A stretch of DNA of 64,000 bases from Myxococcota bacterium (GCA_036012755.1 DASCPX010000016.1:32001-96000); one strand, 5' to 3'; positions 53,508 through 62,778 are shown, counted from the stretch's first letter. Program-made: numbers and translations. The notes: generated from the sequence alone by a model not told the origin.

Positions 53508-54434
53508 ATGCTCCTGTTGATCGCCTGCACCAAGACCCCGGAGCCTGGCGACAGCTCCGCCGATCTGCCCGATCCGGTGGGCGATCCCGACACCGTCGAG
53601 CTCCTCGGCATGTGTCCCCTGGCCGATCACCTCGGGGGCTTCATCGTCGAGGTCGCTCCCGACACCTCCATCGTCGACGGCCGCGTCCGGGACGGGGTCG
53701 TGCCGATCACCGTACTCACAGAGGTGACGAGGCTCGACGAGTGCGCTCTGTTGCGCCGGGAGAACCCCTACTGCGACCCGGACTGCGAGATCGACGAGGC
53801 CTGCGACCTCGACGAGACCTGCATCCCCTACCCCTCTGACGTGGACCTGGGCACGGTCACCCTCGCTGGCCTCGAAGAAGACCTGCGCATGGAGCCGGTC
53901 ACCCCCGGCTTCCGCTACTTCGACACCTCCCTGTCCCACCCGGCCCTGGCCGGCGGAGAGCTCCTGGAGCTCCACGCCTACGGGGCGCTGGACGAGGTGG
54001 TGCTCCACGGGGTCGGCCCGACACCCCTGGTGGCCGAGCTGGAAGAAGACCTCGTCGTCGTCGAAGGCAGCGCCCTGAGCTTGTCCTGGGAGGGGGACCC
54101 TGGGGGCCGCAGCAGCCTGGCGCTCCAGCTGTCGATCGACCAGCACGGCTCCTCGCCCCTGCGCATCGTCTGCGAGCTGGAGGACGACGGCGCCGGAGAG
54201 GTCCCCGTCGAGCTCGTCGAGGCGCTGCTCGGCGGAGGCGTGACCGGCTACCCCAACGCCACCCTCACCCGCCACACGGCGGACCTCGCAGAGATCGACG
54301 GCGGCTGCGTGGACCTCGAGGTCTCGAGCCCCCTGCCGGTGGGCGTGCGGGTCGAGGGCTACATCCCCTGCACCGACGAGGACGACTGTCCGCCCACCAT
54401 GGACTGCAACACGGAGATCGAGCTTTGTCAGTGA
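53508..54434 (+). CDS. Cys-rich hypothetical lipoprotein
   Basis: Starts MLLLIAC; P.CDP.C...E.C.....C and C-terminal C..D.DCP....C......C motifs. Confidence 0.72.
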   Translation: MLLLIACTKTPEPGDSSADLPDPVGDPDTVELLGMCPLADHLGGFIVEVAPDTSIVDGRVRDGVVPITVLTEVTRLDECALLRRENPYCDPDCEIDEACDLDETCIPYPSDVDLGTVTLAGLEEDLRMEPVTPGFRYFDTSLSHPALAGGELLELHAYGALDEVVLHGVGPTPLVAELEEDLVVVEGSALSLSWEGDPGGRSSLALQLSIDQHGSSPLRIVCELEDDGAGEVPVELVEALLGGGVTGYPNATLTRHTADLAEIDGGCVDLEVSSPLPVGVRVEGYIPCTDEDDCPPTMDCNTEIELCQ

Positions 54435-55846
54435 TCCTCTGGCTCGCCTGCACAGGCAACACCGTGCCCGGAGTCGGCGACTCCAGCGAGAGCGCGCTAC
54501 CCGACAGCGGCGACAGCGGTGACTCGGCGGAGCCCATCGATGTCTGCGAGTCCCTCCCCGAAGGCCCCTACGACGAGCGCCAGCTCAGCGGCTTCACCAA
54601 CTCAGAGGACTTCGCCTTCGGCAACGACGGCCGCATGTACTCGGTGAACTGGAACGGCCACCTCGTCTGGCACACCTACGACGGCGACAGCGACACGGTG
54701 CTCCCCCGCCTCGGCGAGGCCGCCGGCATGGAGATGATGGCTGACGGCTCGCTGGTCATAGCCAACGTCTCCGACGGCACGGTCATCCGGGTGGACACAG
54801 AGGACGGGAGCTCCGAGACCCTGATGTCCGGCATCCCCTACCCCAACGGCATCACCATCGACCAGGACGGCGTGGTCTACGTGAGCGAGCACACCCGCGG
54901 GAACGTGCGGCGCTACGACCCGGAGACCGGCGAGTCCGAGCTCATCGCGCGCGGGCTCTACAACCCCAACGGCATGGCCTTCTCTCCCGACTGGCAGACC
55001 CTCTACGTCAACAGCTTCGGGGGCGGCACGGTCCACGCGATCCGACGTGACGGCGAGGGCTTCGCCGAGCCCGAGCTCTTCGGCTCCGTCCTCGAACAGA
55101 ACAGCGAGGTCTGCGAGGACCGCGACGACGGCGAGGTCTGCGTGGAGGACTACCTCATCGGCGCCTGCGAGGCCGGCCTGTGCGCCACGGAGAGCGACAC
55201 CGACGCCTGCGACGCGCTGGCCGAGGGAGACCCCTGCGTCACCACCCGCGCAGGGGAGTCCTTCGAGTCCATCTGCACCACCACCACAGAGGGCAGCCTC
55301 ACCTGTCCCCAGGTGGACGAGGCCCACCTCGCGGGCTGCATGGGCAAGTCCGTCGACGAGAGCTGCAAGGTCACCGACGGCGGCAACGGCTACTGCTACG
55401 AGACCGGGGACGACGTGCTGTCCTGCCTCGACTACGACGAGTGGGAGCACGACGCCATCGAGGCCTGCCAGGGCCAGTCCTCCGGCGAGCCCTGCCAGGT
55501 CTTCACCCAGGGCTACCCCTACGAAGGAGAGTGCGTCGACTACGGCGTCAACTACTGCCTCGGCGAGGGCTACGGCTCCGGGGGCCTCGACGGCCTCGAC
55601 GTCGACGAGTGCGGAAACGTCTATGTCACCGAGTACATCAAGGGCATCGTGTGGCGCATGGACAGCGAGACCGGCGAAGCCGAGAACATCCTGGAGCTGG
55701 ACTCGAGCTGGATCCCCAACCTCCACTGGGGCAGCGGCGTGGGAGGATGGGAAGAGGACATCCTCTACGTCATGGATCGCGACACAAATGGCATCTACGC
55801 AGTCGAGATCGGCTTGAAGGGCCGCCCCACCGCGGTGCGCCCATGA
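54431..55846 (+). CDS. SMP-30/gluconolactonase-like beta-propeller lipoprotein with a Cys-rich insertion
   Basis: SEDFAF, PNGI, PNGMAFSPD..TLYV, LDGL.VDECGNVYV and PNLHWG motifs. Confidence 0.82.
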   Translation: MILWLACTGNTVPGVGDSSESALPDSGDSGDSAEPIDVCESLPEGPYDERQLSGFTNSEDFAFGNDGRMYSVNWNGHLVWHTYDGDSDTVLPRLGEAAGMEMMADGSLVIANVSDGTVIRVDTEDGSSETLMSGIPYPNGITIDQDGVVYVSEHTRGNVRRYDPETGESELIARGLYNPNGMAFSPDWQTLYVNSFGGGTVHAIRRDGEGFAEPELFGSVLEQNSEVCEDRDDGEVCVEDYLIGACEAGLCATESDTDACDALAEGDPCVTTRAGESFESICTTTTEGSLTCPQVDEAHLAGCMGKSVDESCKVTDGGNGYCYETGDDVLSCLDYDEWEHDAIEACQGQSSGEPCQVFTQGYPYEGECVDYGVNYCLGEGYGSGGLDGLDVDECGNVYVTEYIKGIVWRMDSETGEAENILELDSSWIPNLHWGSGVGGWEEDILYVMDRDTNGIYAVEIGLKGRPTAVRP

Positions 55847-57789
55847 TCCTCTGGGCGCTGGTGTCCTGCAACGGCGAGATGCCGGACGAGGGCTGGGAGT
55901 GCATCCACAGCGGTGACGAGCGCCCGGCGTTCCTTCAGCAGCTGGGCTGCGAGGCGGACTTCGACGCCCTCGCCGCCGCCCCGCTCGACGCCTCGATCCC
56001 GGGAGCCCGGAGCACCAAGACCGTCGTCGATCGGGCAGACGACGACTCGCTCTACTTCCAGGACTCGGAGCGCTACCAGATCCACTGGGAGTTCGCCTTC
56101 GAGCACCTCTCCGGGGACGGGCTGCCCATCGTCGACGAGCTCGGGGCCTTCAACGAGACCGAGTACACCTCGCCAGAGCGCCGCTTCGTGCTCGGAGCCC
56201 TGACCATCTACGAGGAGCCGAACGTGTGGGCGTGGGAGGTCAGCCCCTACGACACGGCCACGGCGGACATGATCACGCTGGCCTACCGCAAGATCCGCGA
56301 CAACAGCTGGATCGGAGAGGAGCTCTACTTCCACCCGACCAGCGAGAGCGTCGCAGAGGTGGCAGAGGACCTGCCCTCCGACGTGAAGGTCATCACCACC
56401 GAAGAGCTCTTCGCGGGCATCACCTACCAGCCCCTGAACCTCGGCACCTCGATGGGCAAGTTGCGCTTCTACGAGGACCCGGAGGAGGAGATCCCGAACT
56501 TCCGCGAGATCGTCGTGCTGCCCGCGGTCCCCAACGACATGCCCGTGGTGATGGGCATCGTCACCGACGCCTTCCAGACACCGCTTGCCCACATCAACGT
56601 CCTGTCCCAGAACCGCGGCACGCCCAACATGGCGCTCATCGGCGCCTGGCAGCACCCGGAGCTCCGCGCGCTGGAGGACCTCTGGGTCGAGCTCACGGTC
56701 GAGGCCCACGACTGGTCCGTCCGCGAGGTCACCCAGGAAGAGGCCGACGCCTGGTGGGAGGGCTTCCGTCCGGAGCCCCTCGACGTGACGTCGATGGACC
56801 TCTCGATCCAGGAGATCCTGCCCATCGAAGAGGTGGTGGACCTGGAGCTGGGCCTCGTGCCAGCGCTGGACGCCGCCGTGCCGGCCTTCGGGGGAAAGGC
56901 GAGCCACTTCGCGGTGATGTCCCACTCCCCAGATGCCATCCCGATGCCGACAGCCTCTGCGATGCCGGTCTACTTCTACGACCGCTTCATGGAGGAAAAT
57001 GGCTTCTGGGACGAGGTCGACGAGATGATGGCGGATCCCGACTTCACCGGGGACGCCCTGACCCGGGACGGACGCCTGCGACGCCTGCGCAGCGACATGC
57101 GCCGGGCCCCGATCGACGAGGAGTTCCTCGCCGAGCTCGAGGCCTACGTGAGGGAGAACCACTCCGGCCACCGGGTGCGCTTCCGGTCCTCGACCAACGC
57201 AGAGGACGTCTCTGGCTTCAACGGCGCCGGCCTCTACACCTCCCAGAGCGGTGATCCCGACGACCCGGAGCGCCCCATCGAGGACGCCCTGCGAGAGGTC
57301 TGGGCGAGCTGCTGGTCCTTCCGCGCCTACGAAGAGCGCAGCTACTACGGCATCGACCACACGGACATCGGCATGGCCGTGTTGATGCACCGCAGCTTCC
57401 CCTCAGAGGACGCCAACGGGGTCGCGATCACCGCCAACATCTTCGACACCTCCGGGCTCGAGCCCGCTTTCTACGTGAACGTGCAGTACGGGGACAACTC
57501 GGTCGTGCTGCCGGACGAGGGCGTCACGACCGACCGCTACCTCCACTACTTCGACAACGTCGGCCAGCCGGTGGTCTACCTGGGTCACAGCAACCTGGTG
57601 CCGGACGGAGAGAACGTGCTGACCGAGACCCAGATCAAGGAGCTGAGCTTCGGCCTCGACGCGATCCACGACGTCTTCTACGACGCCTACGGGCACGAAT
57701 CCTTCTACGGAATGGACGTGGAGTTCAAGTTCGACCAGGGCGATCTGTACATCAAGCAGGCGCGGCCCTACCCGGGGCGTGGCGAGTGA
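55843..57789 (+). CDS. PEP/pyruvate-binding (PPDK_N ATP-grasp) domain lipoprotein
   Basis: Starts MILWALVSC; FGGKA, RFRSSTNAED..GFNGAGLY, VWAS, MAVL and DVEF...LYIKQARP motifs. Confidence 0.88.
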   Translation: MILWALVSCNGEMPDEGWECIHSGDERPAFLQQLGCEADFDALAAAPLDASIPGARSTKTVVDRADDDSLYFQDSERYQIHWEFAFEHLSGDGLPIVDELGAFNETEYTSPERRFVLGALTIYEEPNVWAWEVSPYDTATADMITLAYRKIRDNSWIGEELYFHPTSESVAEVAEDLPSDVKVITTEELFAGITYQPLNLGTSMGKLRFYEDPEEEIPNFREIVVLPAVPNDMPVVMGIVTDAFQTPLAHINVLSQNRGTPNMALIGAWQHPELRALEDLWVELTVEAHDWSVREVTQEEADAWWEGFRPEPLDVTSMDLSIQEILPIEEVVDLELGLVPALDAAVPAFGGKASHFAVMSHSPDAIPMPTASAMPVYFYDRFMEENGFWDEVDEMMADPDFTGDALTRDGRLRRLRSDMRRAPIDEEFLAELEAYVRENHSGHRVRFRSSTNAEDVSGFNGAGLYTSQSGDPDDPERPIEDALREVWASCWSFRAYEERSYYGIDHTDIGMAVLMHRSFPSEDANGVAITANIFDTSGLEPAFYVNVQYGDNSVVLPDEGVTTDRYLHYFDNVGQPVVYLGHSNLVPDGENVLTETQIKELSFGLDAIHDVFYDAYGHESFYGMDVEFKFDQGDLYIKQARPYPGRGE

Positions 57790-58277
57790 TCTGGCTGCTG
57801 GCGTGCAACGGGGTTCCAGACGACACGGACTCCCAGGAAAGTGATCCACAGGTTGTGGACAGCTCTGTGGACCCGCCGTTTTTGGCCGATCACCTCGTGA
57901 TCAACGAGCTCGTCTCCCTGGGGACCGGGGGAGACTGGGTGGAGTTGTTCAACCCGACCAGCGAGGAGATCGATCTCTCGACCTGGGAGATCACAGACGA
58001 CGCAGAGAACGACGTGTTGGCCTGGCGCCTGCCAGAGGACATCTCCATCGCAGCGGGGGGCTACTTCCTCATCTGGTGCGACAACGGCGCGGACGGACTC
58101 CACACGGACTTCCAGCTCTCCCAGGGCGAACACATCACGATCTATTCCGAGCTGGGCCTGCGCGTAGACGAGGTAGAGGTCCCCTCGCTCATCGTCGACC
58201 AGGCAGCTGCGCGCATCCCAGACGGCTGGAGCACCTGGGAGGCCCAGGACCCCACCCCCGAAGCCAGCAACGAGTAG
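57786..58277 (+). CDS. Lamin-tail-domain (LTD) lipoprotein
   Basis: Starts MIWLLAC; LVINE, DWVELFNP....IDLS.W.ITD, H.DF.LS.GE, R.PDG and PTP..SN motifs. Confidence 0.85.
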   Translation: MIWLLACNGVPDDTDSQESDPQVVDSSVDPPFLADHLVINELVSLGTGGDWVELFNPTSEEIDLSTWEITDDAENDVLAWRLPEDISIAAGGYFLIWCDNGADGLHTDFQLSQGEHITIYSELGLRVDEVEVPSLIVDQAAARIPDGWSTWEAQDPTPEASNE

Positions 58278-59714: not shown

Positions 59715-60854
59715 TTAGCCCTCGAAGAGGTGGCCGGCCACCGCGAGGAGCCCGTGAAGATCGTGGACCTCGTGCTCCAGCCGCGGGACCTCGACGAGCA
59801 CGCCGCCGGCGATCGGGCTGACCCGGCTGATCAGCTCGCCCTCCGTGCCCGCCTGCTGCCGTAGCCTCCCGTGAGCCGCCCCCAGGCGAGCGACCAGGCT
59901 CGCTGCCGTGCGTGGCTCGAGGTCGCTCGCGAGCTCCCGCGCGGCCTCGCCGAGCAGCACCCCCGCCTCGAGCGCCCCAGCGGCGCTGACGTGGACCTGG
60001 TTCACGATGAGCCCTCCGCGCGGGTAGTCGTGCTTCCTCAGCTCCTCGGCGAAGAAGCCGGCCACCTCGACGCTGGGCTCCGTCGGAGCGCAGACCGTGA
60101 GGAAGCGCGTGTCGTTGCTGCGGAACAGATCCAGGACGCGCTCGTGACGTTCCCGAAAGCCATCGACCATGTCCTTGAAGAGCTGCAGGAACTCTGCGAG
60201 ATCACCCAGGAATTCACTGCCGAAGACATAGCCGAGCAATCGCCAGACGATGGCTCCGGTGCCATGCACGACGCTCGAGAGCAACCCCGTGCTGGGGGGC
60301 AGCAGGAACCAGTCGATGACCTGCCGGTCCATGAAGCGCGAGAGCCGGCCCGGGGCCTCGAAGAAGTCCAGCGCGTTCTTCACCGGGGGCGTGTCCAGCA
60401 CGACGAGGTCATAGTTGCCGCTTACCACCACGTCGTGGAGCTTCTCCGCCGCCATGTACTCCTGGCTGCCGGCGAAGGTGTCGCTCATCGTCTGGTAGAT
60501 GGGGTTCGCCAGGATGCGCCTGGCGGTGGCCTCGTCGGGGGCGGTGCTGCGAATGAGCTGGTCGAAGGTGGTGCGCGTGTCGAGCATCATCGCGTACAGC
60601 TCGCCGCCCTCAGAGAAGTCCAACTCACTGAGATCGATGCGCTTCTCAGCGTTTCCGAACTCCGACAGACCCAAGCTGTTGGCCAGCCGCCGCGCCGGGT
60701 CGATCGTCAGGACCAGGACCTTGCGGCCCTGCTTCGCCCCCCAGAGCGCGATGGTCGCTGCGACTGTCGTCTTGCCCACACCCCCGCTGCCCACACAGAC
60801 GATGAGAGTGCGTTCACCAACGACGGTGTCGAGGGTCTGGCGGGCTCCGTTCAC
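59715..60854 (-). CDS. ArsA/GET3-family ATPase
   Basis: GSGGVGKTT, TIDPARRLA, LDTPP and VNQV motifs. Confidence 0.9.
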   Translation of the reverse strand: MNGARQTLDTVVGERTLIVCVGSGGVGKTTVAATIALWGAKQGRKVLVLTIDPARRLANSLGLSEFGNAEKRIDLSELDFSEGGELYAMMLDTRTTFDQLIRSTAPDEATARRILANPIYQTMSDTFAGSQEYMAAEKLHDVVVSGNYDLVVLDTPPVKNALDFFEAPGRLSRFMDRQVIDWFLLPPSTGLLSSVVHGTGAIVWRLLGYVFGSEFLGDLAEFLQLFKDMVDGFRERHERVLDLFRSNDTRFLTVCAPTEPSVEVAGFFAEELRKHDYPRGGLIVNQVHVSAAGALEAGVLLGEAARELASDLEPRTAASLVARLGAAHGRLRQQAGTEGELISRVSPIAGGVLVEVPRLEHEVHDLHGLLAVAGHLFEG

Positions 60855-61792
60855 CGGGACAGCCCCCGGTTCGAGGTCCGCGCCAGCGCCGCGGCGAGGT
60901 TGGTCACGAGCTTGGCGGCCCCGTTCTCCTGTGACAGCCGGGGCACGTCGATCACGCGAACGCCGACCTCCTCCTCCAGGCGACCCATGGTCCGCCCGGT
61001 GGCCTCCTCGAGGGCAGCCTCCCAGCGTCCTGCGAGGAGCAGCTCTCCCTCGTCACCCTCGTCGTAGCGAGTGGACAGCCGCTCCAGCAGGACCCGCTCG
61101 TCGGACGACAGGGAAGGGCGCGAGGCGCGGTTGAGCACCACCAAGGGCACGCTGAGCTCCGGGACGTGCTTACCCAGGGTGTTGAAGGTCTCGACGGTCT
61201 CGTTGACCACCATCTCCTCGGGCAGCGCCACCAGCACGAGGTGGGTGTCCGGACGCTTCAACATCGCCAGCGACTCGGTGCTGCGCACGTGCAGCGGGCC
61301 GACCCGAAACAGCGACAGGGTGCGGCTCGGCGAGCGCATCAGCGCCGCGGCGTGACCGGAAGCGGGCAGGTCGACGATGAGGAGGTCGTAGTCCTCGCGC
61401 AGCCAGACGAGCTTCGAGAGGGTGACGACCTCTCGGTTGCCAGGGGTGGCGTCGAGGAAGAGCCGAACCAGCCGGTTCGCCAGGATCATGTCGACGATGC
61501 GAGTGCTCGGTACCACCCGCTCGATCCACTCGTGCATCGCCTCGTACCAGGTGACGTTGCAGATCGACAGGTTCGCAGCGACCTGCACCGGCCGGTACCC
61601 GACCTCTGCCCCGAAGAGCGGAGCCAGCGCCGAGCGCTGCGCGTCCGCCTCGACGATGAGGACCTTGCGTCCCTGGGCAGCGGCCAGGCGCCCCAGGGCA
61701 GCGGAGACCGAGGTCTTGCCGACACCGCCCTTGCCCGTGACGAGCACGACCCGTCCGAAGACGAGGTCGGCGATGTCGAAGCCGTTCACCAT
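60851..61792 (-). CDS. ArsA/GET3-family ATPase (second paralog)
   Basis: TGKGGVGKT, DLPASGH, LPEEM.VNET and VLNR motifs; start overlaps the fabH stop. Confidence 0.88.
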   Translation of the reverse strand: MVNGFDIADLVFGRVVLVTGKGGVGKTSVSAALGRLAAAQGRKVLIVEADAQRSALAPLFGAEVGYRPVQVAANLSICNVTWYEAMHEWIERVVPSTRIVDMILANRLVRLFLDATPGNREVVTLSKLVWLREDYDLLIVDLPASGHAAALMRSPSRTLSLFRVGPLHVRSTESLAMLKRPDTHLVLVALPEEMVVNETVETFNTLGKHVPELSVPLVVLNRASRPSLSSDERVLLERLSTRYDEGDEGELLLAGRWEAALEEATGRTMGRLEEEVGVRVIDVPRLSQENGAAKLVTNLAAALARTSNRGLSR

Positions 61793-62778
61793 CGCAGCAG
61801 GGTGGCTCCCCAGGTCATGCCGGCGCCGAGGGCGGCCAGACAGACGAGGTCCCCGTCCCTGACGCGCCCCTGCTGGACCGCCTCGTGCAGGGCGATCGGA
61901 ATGCTCGCGGCGGTGGTGTTGCCATAGCGCTGGATGTTGTGGAACACCCGCGCGGGATCGAGCTCCATCCGCCTGCAGACGGCCTCGTTGATCCGCAGGT
62001 TGGCCTGGTGGGGGACCAGCAGATCGAGCTCGTCGAGGCGCACCTCGTGGGTCTCCAGCAGGGAGAGGATGACCTCGGGCAAGAGCCGCACGGCCATCTT
62101 GAAGACCGCGCGCCCCTCCATGTGCGGGAAGTGCAGTCCCTCGCTGAGCATCTCGTGGGTGAGCCGTGGGTTCCGTCGGCTCGCTGGGGCCTCCAGCTTC
62201 AGGATCTCCACGTAGGCGCCGTCCGCGTGCAGCTCGTGTCCCAGGATGCGGCGATCGCCGTCTGTGGGGCCGACGACGGCGGCTCCGGCCCCGTCGCCGA
62301 AGATGACGGTCACGTCCCGGCCTCGGTCGCTCATCTCGAGACCGCTGGAGTGCACCTCCGAGCCGACGACGAGCACGTGCCGGGCGAGGCCCGAGCGTAT
62401 GTGGGCGTCGGCGATCTGCAGACCGTAGAGGAAGCCCGTGCACTGGGTCCGGATGTCCAGCGCCGGGACGCCGTTGAGACCCAGCCGGTCCTGCAACAAG
62501 CAGCCCGAGCCTGGGAAGAAGACGTCCGGAGAGAGCGTGGCGAAGATGATGAGGTCGACCTCTGAGCACGGCAGGCCAGCCTCGGCCAGGGCCTCCTCCA
62601 CCGCGGGCACGGCGAGCTCGGCCGGGCCGACATCGCCCTCGACCCAGCGGCGCTCGACGATGCCCGTGCGTTTCTGGATCCACTCGTCGGTGGTCGACAG
62701 GAACACAGCGAGATCGTCGTTGGTGACGACCCGATCGGGCACGTGGTGCCCCAAACCCAGGATCCGAGAGCCCAGCAT
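61786..62778 (-). CDS. fabH: 3-oxoacyl-ACP synthase III
   Basis: DEWIQKRTGI, QCTGF, FGDGAGA, PHQANLRI and YGNTTAASIP motifs. Confidence 0.93.
   Translation of the reverse strand: MLGSRILGLGHHVPDRVVTNDDLAVFLSTTDEWIQKRTGIVERRWVEGDVGPAELAVPAVEEALAEAGLPCSEVDLIIFATLSPDVFFPGSGCLLQDRLGLNGVPALDIRTQCTGFLYGLQIADAHIRSGLARHVLVVGSEVHSSGLEMSDRGRDVTVIFGDGAGAAVVGPTDGDRRILGHELHADGAYVEILKLEAPASRRNPRLTHEMLSEGLHFPHMEGRAVFKMAVRLLPEVILSLLETHEVRLDELDLLVPHQANLRINEAVCRRMELDPARVFHNIQRYGNTTAASIPIALHEAVQQGRVRDGDLVCLAALGAGMTWGATLLRW

Follow-up and report, generated by a model that had tools for sequence, protein, structure and literature searches.

A predicted lipid-anchored swivel-histidine phosphotransferase of the Myxococcota cell envelope, possibly fed by polyphosphate

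Dikinases are known as cytoplasmic or plastid enzymes that use ATP, and a gene that appears to place one of them outside the cytoplasm raises the question of what drives the enzyme there and what it phosphorylates. We analyzed such a gene in a stretch of 64,000 nucleotides (hereafter, the window) from a Myxococcota bacterium (GCA_036012755.1, DASCPX010000016.1:32001-96000), whose genome is a 6.7-Mb assembly. The gene encodes a dikinase-type protein of 648 residues. We propose, with a probability of roughly 0.4, that this protein is a lipid-anchored envelope phosphotransferase fed by polyphosphate, its acceptor being an envelope component presented by co-encoded lipoproteins. That it is an exported, active swivel-histidine phosphotransferase of some kind we consider likely.

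The dikinase gene is a single open frame with a GC content at third codon positions of 0.94. It begins with an ATG that shares bases with the stop codon of the preceding gene (ATGA), and its own stop overlaps the next start (GTGA), giving a four-base overlap with the neighbor on either side. We rejected a longer reading of 869 residues from a GTG at 55180, which passes over the upstream gene in a different frame; the form listed in the protein collection is the one of 648 residues. Among 7998 candidates scored, 3448 were homologs at E≤0.001, and the family forms 1106 clusters (50% identity, E≤1e-30); the open frame is therefore not a product of chance. AlphaFold models the protein with a mean confidence (pLDDT) of 92 over its whole length and 96 for residues 16–311.

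The elements of a phosphoryl relay are in place. Residues 193–303 superimpose on rifampin phosphotransferase (RPH) of Listeria (5hv1: Z 11.6, root-mean-square deviation 2.4, 103 residues aligned), followed by the C-terminal domain of pyruvate kinase (Z 10.7), enzyme I (10.3) and pyruvate phosphate dikinase (PPDK; 8.4), and Foldseek agrees on a swivel domain (E 1e-4 to 5hv2). H250, the predicted phospho-carrier of this domain, is present in 124 of 130 diverse homologs (the query and 129 of 150 representatives, 21 having been dropped by length), and sub-threshold profile alignments put it in register with the swivel histidine motif of three phosphoenolpyruvate (PEP) synthases. All six homologs without H250 also lack several of K352, R448, K638, Q639, and R641, and five of them retain H81 of the front domain; this joint loss ties H250 to the ATP-grasp site. 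The ATP-grasp domain itself, at residues 348–643, matches PPDK_N with E 1.8e-22, above the Pfam cut-off, and retains all phosphate- and Mg-binding residues. K22, R117, T136, and E297 of RPH align to K352, R448, S467, and E627 of the dikinase and are thus kept, T136 as Ser (PMC4844700). With this ATP-grasp domain and a swivel fold carrying a conserved histidine, the protein appears to belong to the swivel phospho-histidine dikinases of the PEP-utilizer superfamily, and its relay is very probably active.

Within this superfamily the closest comparisons each leave something unmatched. For the ATP-grasp domain and for the swivel domain alike, Listeria RPH is the closest match in structure, and its order of ATP, substrate, and histidine domains is unlike that of the dikinase (PMC4844700); we found no match to the rifampin-binding domain, and with 35 bits against a family cut-off of 999 the protein is not an RPH. 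NCBIfam matches to PEP synthase, RPH, PigC, and RedH span the PPDK_N domain only and lie far under their cut-offs. PEP synthase and PPDK share the ATP-grasp domain and the swivel histidine motif, whereas the dikinase has its histidine domain before the ATP domain and is predicted to be exported. It also has no C-terminal PEP/pyruvate-binding barrel, as judged from the lack of any family match and from a protein end that comes a few residues after PPDK_N, with six residues beyond the QARP motif.

The same acceptor-histidine-ATP order is found in the plant glucan,water dikinases GWD1 and PWD (PF22973 with PF01326). Potato GWD1 has two carbohydrate-binding modules (CBMs) followed by the central, histidine, and ATP domains, and its histidine domain swivels (PMC13553574; for background on GWD, see PMC12892837). 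A leucine two residues before the histidine is conserved in both proteins (L990/H992 in potato GWD, L248/H250 in the dikinase). The Pfam model of the GWD histidine domain, GWD1_pHisD, did not match the query, and homologs scored 14–23 bits against a cut-off of 27. This model gave 17 matches in 201 genomes of the phylum, all below the cut-off, and prefers the dikinase family over canonical swivel domains; since 16 of the 17 are members of this family, the swivel domain is GWD-like. The two systems differ elsewhere, and we do not class the protein as a GWD. GWD is a plastid enzyme with CBM45 modules, whereas the dikinase has an export signal, two extra lysines, and partner lipoproteins, and a Pfam scan detected no CBM in it. 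The GWD central domain consists of 20 helices (PMC13553574), in contrast to the front domain of the dikinase, an alpha/beta domain of 175 residues.

This front domain (residues 18–192) matched no Pfam family. The best solved structures reached only Z 4.7 (2okf) and Z 4.5 (2vld), in a weak test in which it was folded together with the swivel domain, which filled the list; we set both aside as scores of a common arrangement. A feature search of the Atlas reached only 0.77, and a structure search there listed three clusters without PPDK_N (324, 371, and 451 residues). A search for shorter homologs returned 45 matches, mostly singleton or partial sequences. In this domain K59, H81, F84, F103, Y108, R113, E132, and D137 are conserved, H81 in 129 and Y108 in 128 of the 130 sequences, and the front domain probably holds the acceptor site.

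The N-terminus, MILWALVSC, is compatible with a very short lipoprotein signal. Such very short starts, lacking a charged n-region, are common in the host genome, in which about 470 of 6749 coding-like open reading frames carry them (an upper bound). Using a simple lipobox rule of our own, rather than a trained predictor, we found a lipobox in 113 of 120 close homologs and in none of 1464 internal control windows, and in 54 of 128 diverse homologs as opposed to 1 of 1864 internal windows. An N-terminal hydrophobic stretch is a weaker test, being found in 115 of 128 diverse homologs but also in 401 of 1864 control windows. A conserved hydrophobic stretch and a lipobox cysteine thus mark the protein as a predicted bacterial lipoprotein. 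Some homologs are fused to fn3, PKD, LTD (lamin-tail domain), or CarboxypepD_reg domains, fusions that would fit life at the surface. We are confident that the dikinase sits in the cell envelope. A preliminary description of this DNA, made from the sequence alone, had proposed an extracytoplasmic protein with a lipoprotein-like start, a front domain of unknown kind, a histidine in a divergent swivel domain, a full PPDK_N domain, and no PEP-binding barrel, and the results above support it on each of these points. It had also described the domain order as a permutation; the histidine domain does precede the ATP-grasp domain, but plant GWD shows that the order is not unprecedented (PMC13553574).

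The family is large and widespread. A profile of residues 16–311 detected it in 81 of the 201 phylum genomes, one of which has as many as eight matches. The closest named relatives are mostly from Myxococcota. Fibrobacterota and Acidobacteriota also have members, as do cultured Flavobacterium species, whose copies are annotated as PEP/pyruvate-binding protein or PEP synthase. Many database entries with these two names probably belong to this exported family. Full-text searches, which leave out most subscription journals, returned no description of it: the relay chemistry and the domain order are already known, and the searches brought up no published account of the export, the front domain, the lysines, or the partner module.

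The partners are genes that the preliminary description overlooked. The dikinase is the third gene of a coupled run of four, all encoding predicted lipoproteins: a protein that we call X, an SGL-type propeller, the dikinase, and an LTD protein, whose domain is also fused to some dikinase family members and to CotH. We examined the best 80 of at least 323 confirmed GTDB loci, many of them ended by contig ends and themselves the source of the profiles used. X was present in 50 of the 80, followed by a DUF1554-like protein (25), the propeller (21), VTC (11), DUF4956 (9), and CotH and LTD (8 each). The propeller and the DUF1554-like protein never occur together in one locus. On a FastTree phylogeny of 72 rows (the query and 71 of the 80 loci, nine low-scoring or broken ones being omitted) each of these two labels needed four changes, and the third slot has therefore been swapped more than once. 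X was found in 31 of 31 genomes with this clade and 3 of 30 others among 61 relatives, in 44 of 45 phylum genomes with the clade as opposed to 8 of 156 without it, and only 2 of the 52 phylum genomes with X lack the dikinase family; the two samples overlap, their kin are not independent, and an X profile built from this clade's neighbors favors the result. X has invariant cysteines and an invariant histidine in a His-Gly motif and matches nothing in Pfam or the PDB; Atlas clusters with TIG or CarboxypepD_reg resemble it with TM scores of 0.5–0.6, under the bar for a family name. The chances are about even that these lipoproteins present an envelope acceptor to the dikinase.

Two observations point to polyphosphate as the phosphate donor. 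The ATP-grasp domain carries two family-specific lysines, K629 in 110 and K638 in 109 of 130 members, at positions where canonical PPDK_N proteins have A/C/S/V and V/L, respectively, in all 25 that could be compared (out of 33 loci, those with recognizable motifs). In addition, H-R-S-F is the commonest reading in the family where canonical proteins have Q-x-M/L/V, and the residues presumed to surround the nucleotide site (K629, K638, H-R-S-F) differ from all 25. Two added lysines with every phosphate ligand kept could make a polyphosphate site, and a different nucleotide would also fit. The second observation is genomic. VTC is present in 66 of 81 family genomes and 31 of 120 others and CotH in 71 of 81 and 33 of 120, counts that are inflated by kinship and uncorrected for genome size; seven of the 81 have neither. 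DUF4956 adjoins the dikinase in 23 of 80 Bacteroidota-like loci. A CotH, VTC, and membrane-protein trio has been described at the Streptococcus pel locus (10.1101/2024.04.20.589940); the VTC/DUF4956/CotH triad recurs beside the dikinase family or in genomes that carry it, and the available portion of that description mentions no dikinase. The preliminary description had called the enzyme ATP-dependent. This was an assumption, and the lysines and the VTC/DUF4956 link point at least as well to polyphosphate, a donor for which we see the evidence as evenly balanced.

Besides the inflation of these counts, several points weigh against an envelope enzyme of this kind fed by polyphosphate. VTC has no match in 15 of the 81 family genomes, including 4 of 45 of this clade (93–99% completeness), and in the host genome the VTC-DUF4956-CotH cluster is on a different contig from the dikinase. 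The Bacteroidota-like DUF4956 neighbors are convergent in 22 of 23 cases and include many near-identical kin, and X is found in none of the 80 Bacteroidota-like loci. The signal of this dikinase copy has no positively charged n-region. The placement of K629 and K638 at the adenosine pocket is putative: they would correspond to M259 and L269 of D-Ala-D-Ala ligase, which pack on adenine. The available portions of two PPDK papers give no such adenine contacts (PMC5371819, PMC5507339), and in GWD the purine contacts are made by the backbone, a change of side chain being tolerated (PMC13553574). Finally, the pel study, whose available portion describes no export of polyphosphate by bacterial VTC, suggests that the polymer may remain in the cytoplasm (10.1101/2024.04.20.589940).

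In the mechanism that we favor, a phosphoryl group from polyphosphate would be taken at the C-terminal ATP-grasp domain onto H250. The histidine domain would then swing, bringing H250 to the front domain, and at the conserved site there the phosphate would be handed on to an envelope component that X and the exchangeable third lipoprotein present. By analogy with the chemistry of RPH and GWD, the histidine would be phosphorylated, the domain would swivel, and two phosphoanhydride bonds would be spent. A close rival retains this relay and changes its fuel: ATP or another nucleoside triphosphate, released to the envelope or from prey, would drive transfer to a surface protein or glycan. Little ATP is available outside the cytoplasm, the basic substitutions are family-wide and occur in none of the 25 canonical proteins, and adjacency to VTC/DUF4956 is repeated, all of which argue against this fuel. 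It would, however, account for the genomes without VTC and for the intact phosphate- and Mg-binding residues, and the 26 CotH matches in the host genome suggest that some phosphoryl supply exists outside. The characterized relatives RPH and GWD, moreover, use ATP (PMC4844700, PMC13553574). We regard an ATP-driven envelope dikinase as a serious, if tentative, possibility. Polyphosphate could instead be converted to ATP: two bonds of polyphosphate exported by a VTC/DUF4956 machine would be spent on phospho-histidine at H250, and a front domain binding ADP or AMP would supply secreted CotH kinases with ATP. Such an enzyme would be, to our knowledge, the first polyphosphate-driven dikinase, and would explain where the secreted kinases of bacteria obtain their fuel. 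The enrichment of CotH in family genomes, the fusion of LTD both to the dikinase family and to CotH, and conserved aromatic, basic, and acidic front-domain residues that could hold a nucleotide are consistent with it. Against it, the front domain matches no nucleotide-binding fold, CotH is missing from 10 of 81 family genomes and adjacent in only 8 of the best 80 loci, and it is X and the propeller or DUF1554-like proteins that accompany the dikinase most closely; such a regenerator is improbable.

Three further explanations fare worse. Potato GWD turned about 80% of ATP to AMP and phosphate in vitro without transfer (PMC13553574), and a scavenging hydrolase that passes phosphate from outside ATP or polyphosphate through phospho-histidine to water can be imagined; it is very unlikely, as a separately conserved front site, with H81 and Y108 nearly invariant, and near-obligate partners would be superfluous for hydrolysis. 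The domain order and the 16 of 17 GWD histidine-model matches would suit a genuine glucan,water dikinase of bacteria with alpha-glucan as its acceptor, to which we give still less credit in view of the sub-threshold scores, the lack of a CBM in the Pfam scan, and a front domain unlike the 20-helix central domain (PMC13553574). A cytoplasmic PEP synthase fragment or inactive relic, as the database names of homologs would have it, is barely credible: the PEP-binding barrel is missing, export signals and active site are conserved, and most of the shorter forms are singletons or incomplete sequences.

The family is large and predicted to be exported, its relay is intact, its front domain matches no solved structure, and its partner lipoproteins are fixed; together these features imply that phosphoryl groups are transferred in a compartment believed to contain no ATP. 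If polyphosphate is the donor, it would represent a new way to power phosphorylation in the cell envelope, and it raises the questions of how CotH and other secreted kinases are fueled and whether VTC proteins of bacteria export polyphosphate to that end. Cultured Flavobacterium species have soluble members that lend themselves to direct assay.

Table 1. Positions in the window of the dikinase gene, its predicted domains and sites, and the co-encoded lipoprotein genes.
Feature	Position	Strand	Basis or remark
Exported (predicted) dikinase-type phosphotransferase gene, 648 aa	55843..57789	+	
Very short predicted lipoprotein signal ending at Cys9	55843..55869	+	Lipobox rule
Front alpha/beta domain, residues 18–192, predicted acceptor site	55894..56418	+	Conservation, confident model
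Swivel phospho-histidine domain, residues 193–303	56419..56751	+	Structure match
H250, predicted phospho-carrier, codon CAC	56590..56592	+	Conservation
PPDK_N ATP-grasp domain, residues 348–643, with K352, R448, S467, E627, Q639, R641	56884..57771	+	
Family-specific lysines K629 and K638	57727..57756	+	Conservation vs canonical PPDK_N
Partner X, 308-aa Cys-rich predicted lipoprotein	53508..54434	+	No Pfam or PDB match
SGL-type beta-propeller predicted lipoprotein with Cys-rich insert	54425..55846	+	Pfam SGL E 3.3e-12; likely true start GTG 54431
Lamin-tail-domain (LTD) predicted lipoprotein	57786..58277	+	Pfam LTD E 2e-14

The host genome holds a second family member (G000:C70:102193-104121; L002; L097 13201-18131) with 34% identity to the first, the histidine kept, and a lipobox. 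It is directly preceded by four related genes encoding 240–263 residues without a Pfam match, at least two of which end in what we take to be a MYXO-CTERM-like tail. The genome also contains one unlinked paralog of X (L094 6240-7166) and two of the propeller (L095 5640-6662; L096 5378-6364). Its VTC gene lies in a cluster (L093 4305-13090, on G000:C72) with a membrane-fusion-like gene, DUF4956, a NosD-like repeat lipoprotein, an LTD lipoprotein, and three CotH genes, the third of which seems to begin in another frame.

Elsewhere in the family, six exported homologs (P0130, P0134, P0154, P0172, P0175, P0240) have lost H250 and most ATP-grasp catalytic residues, mostly keep H81, and are likely pseudo-enzymes. 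The DUF1554-like exported proteins (L011, L033, L038, L052, and 21 other loci) belong to one strongly conserved family rich in Gly, Trp, and Cys, and two to four copies may stand beside a dikinase gene. Two or three ATP-grasp genes in tandem are found close to the dikinases of a sub-clade without X (L022, L030, L057), and a Na/phosphate cotransporter (L031) and a phosphate-selective porin (L004) are encoded near other dikinase genes. Genes from several records labeled Enterobacterales, Rickettsiales, or Klebsiella (e.g. L003, L011, L020) group with Myxococcota homologs, and these labels are probably wrong. Within the window, two tandem ATPase genes with GKGGVGK and GSGGVGK motifs, presumably ArsA/Get3-like, lie on the minus strand (59715-61927) downstream of a FabH-like gene.

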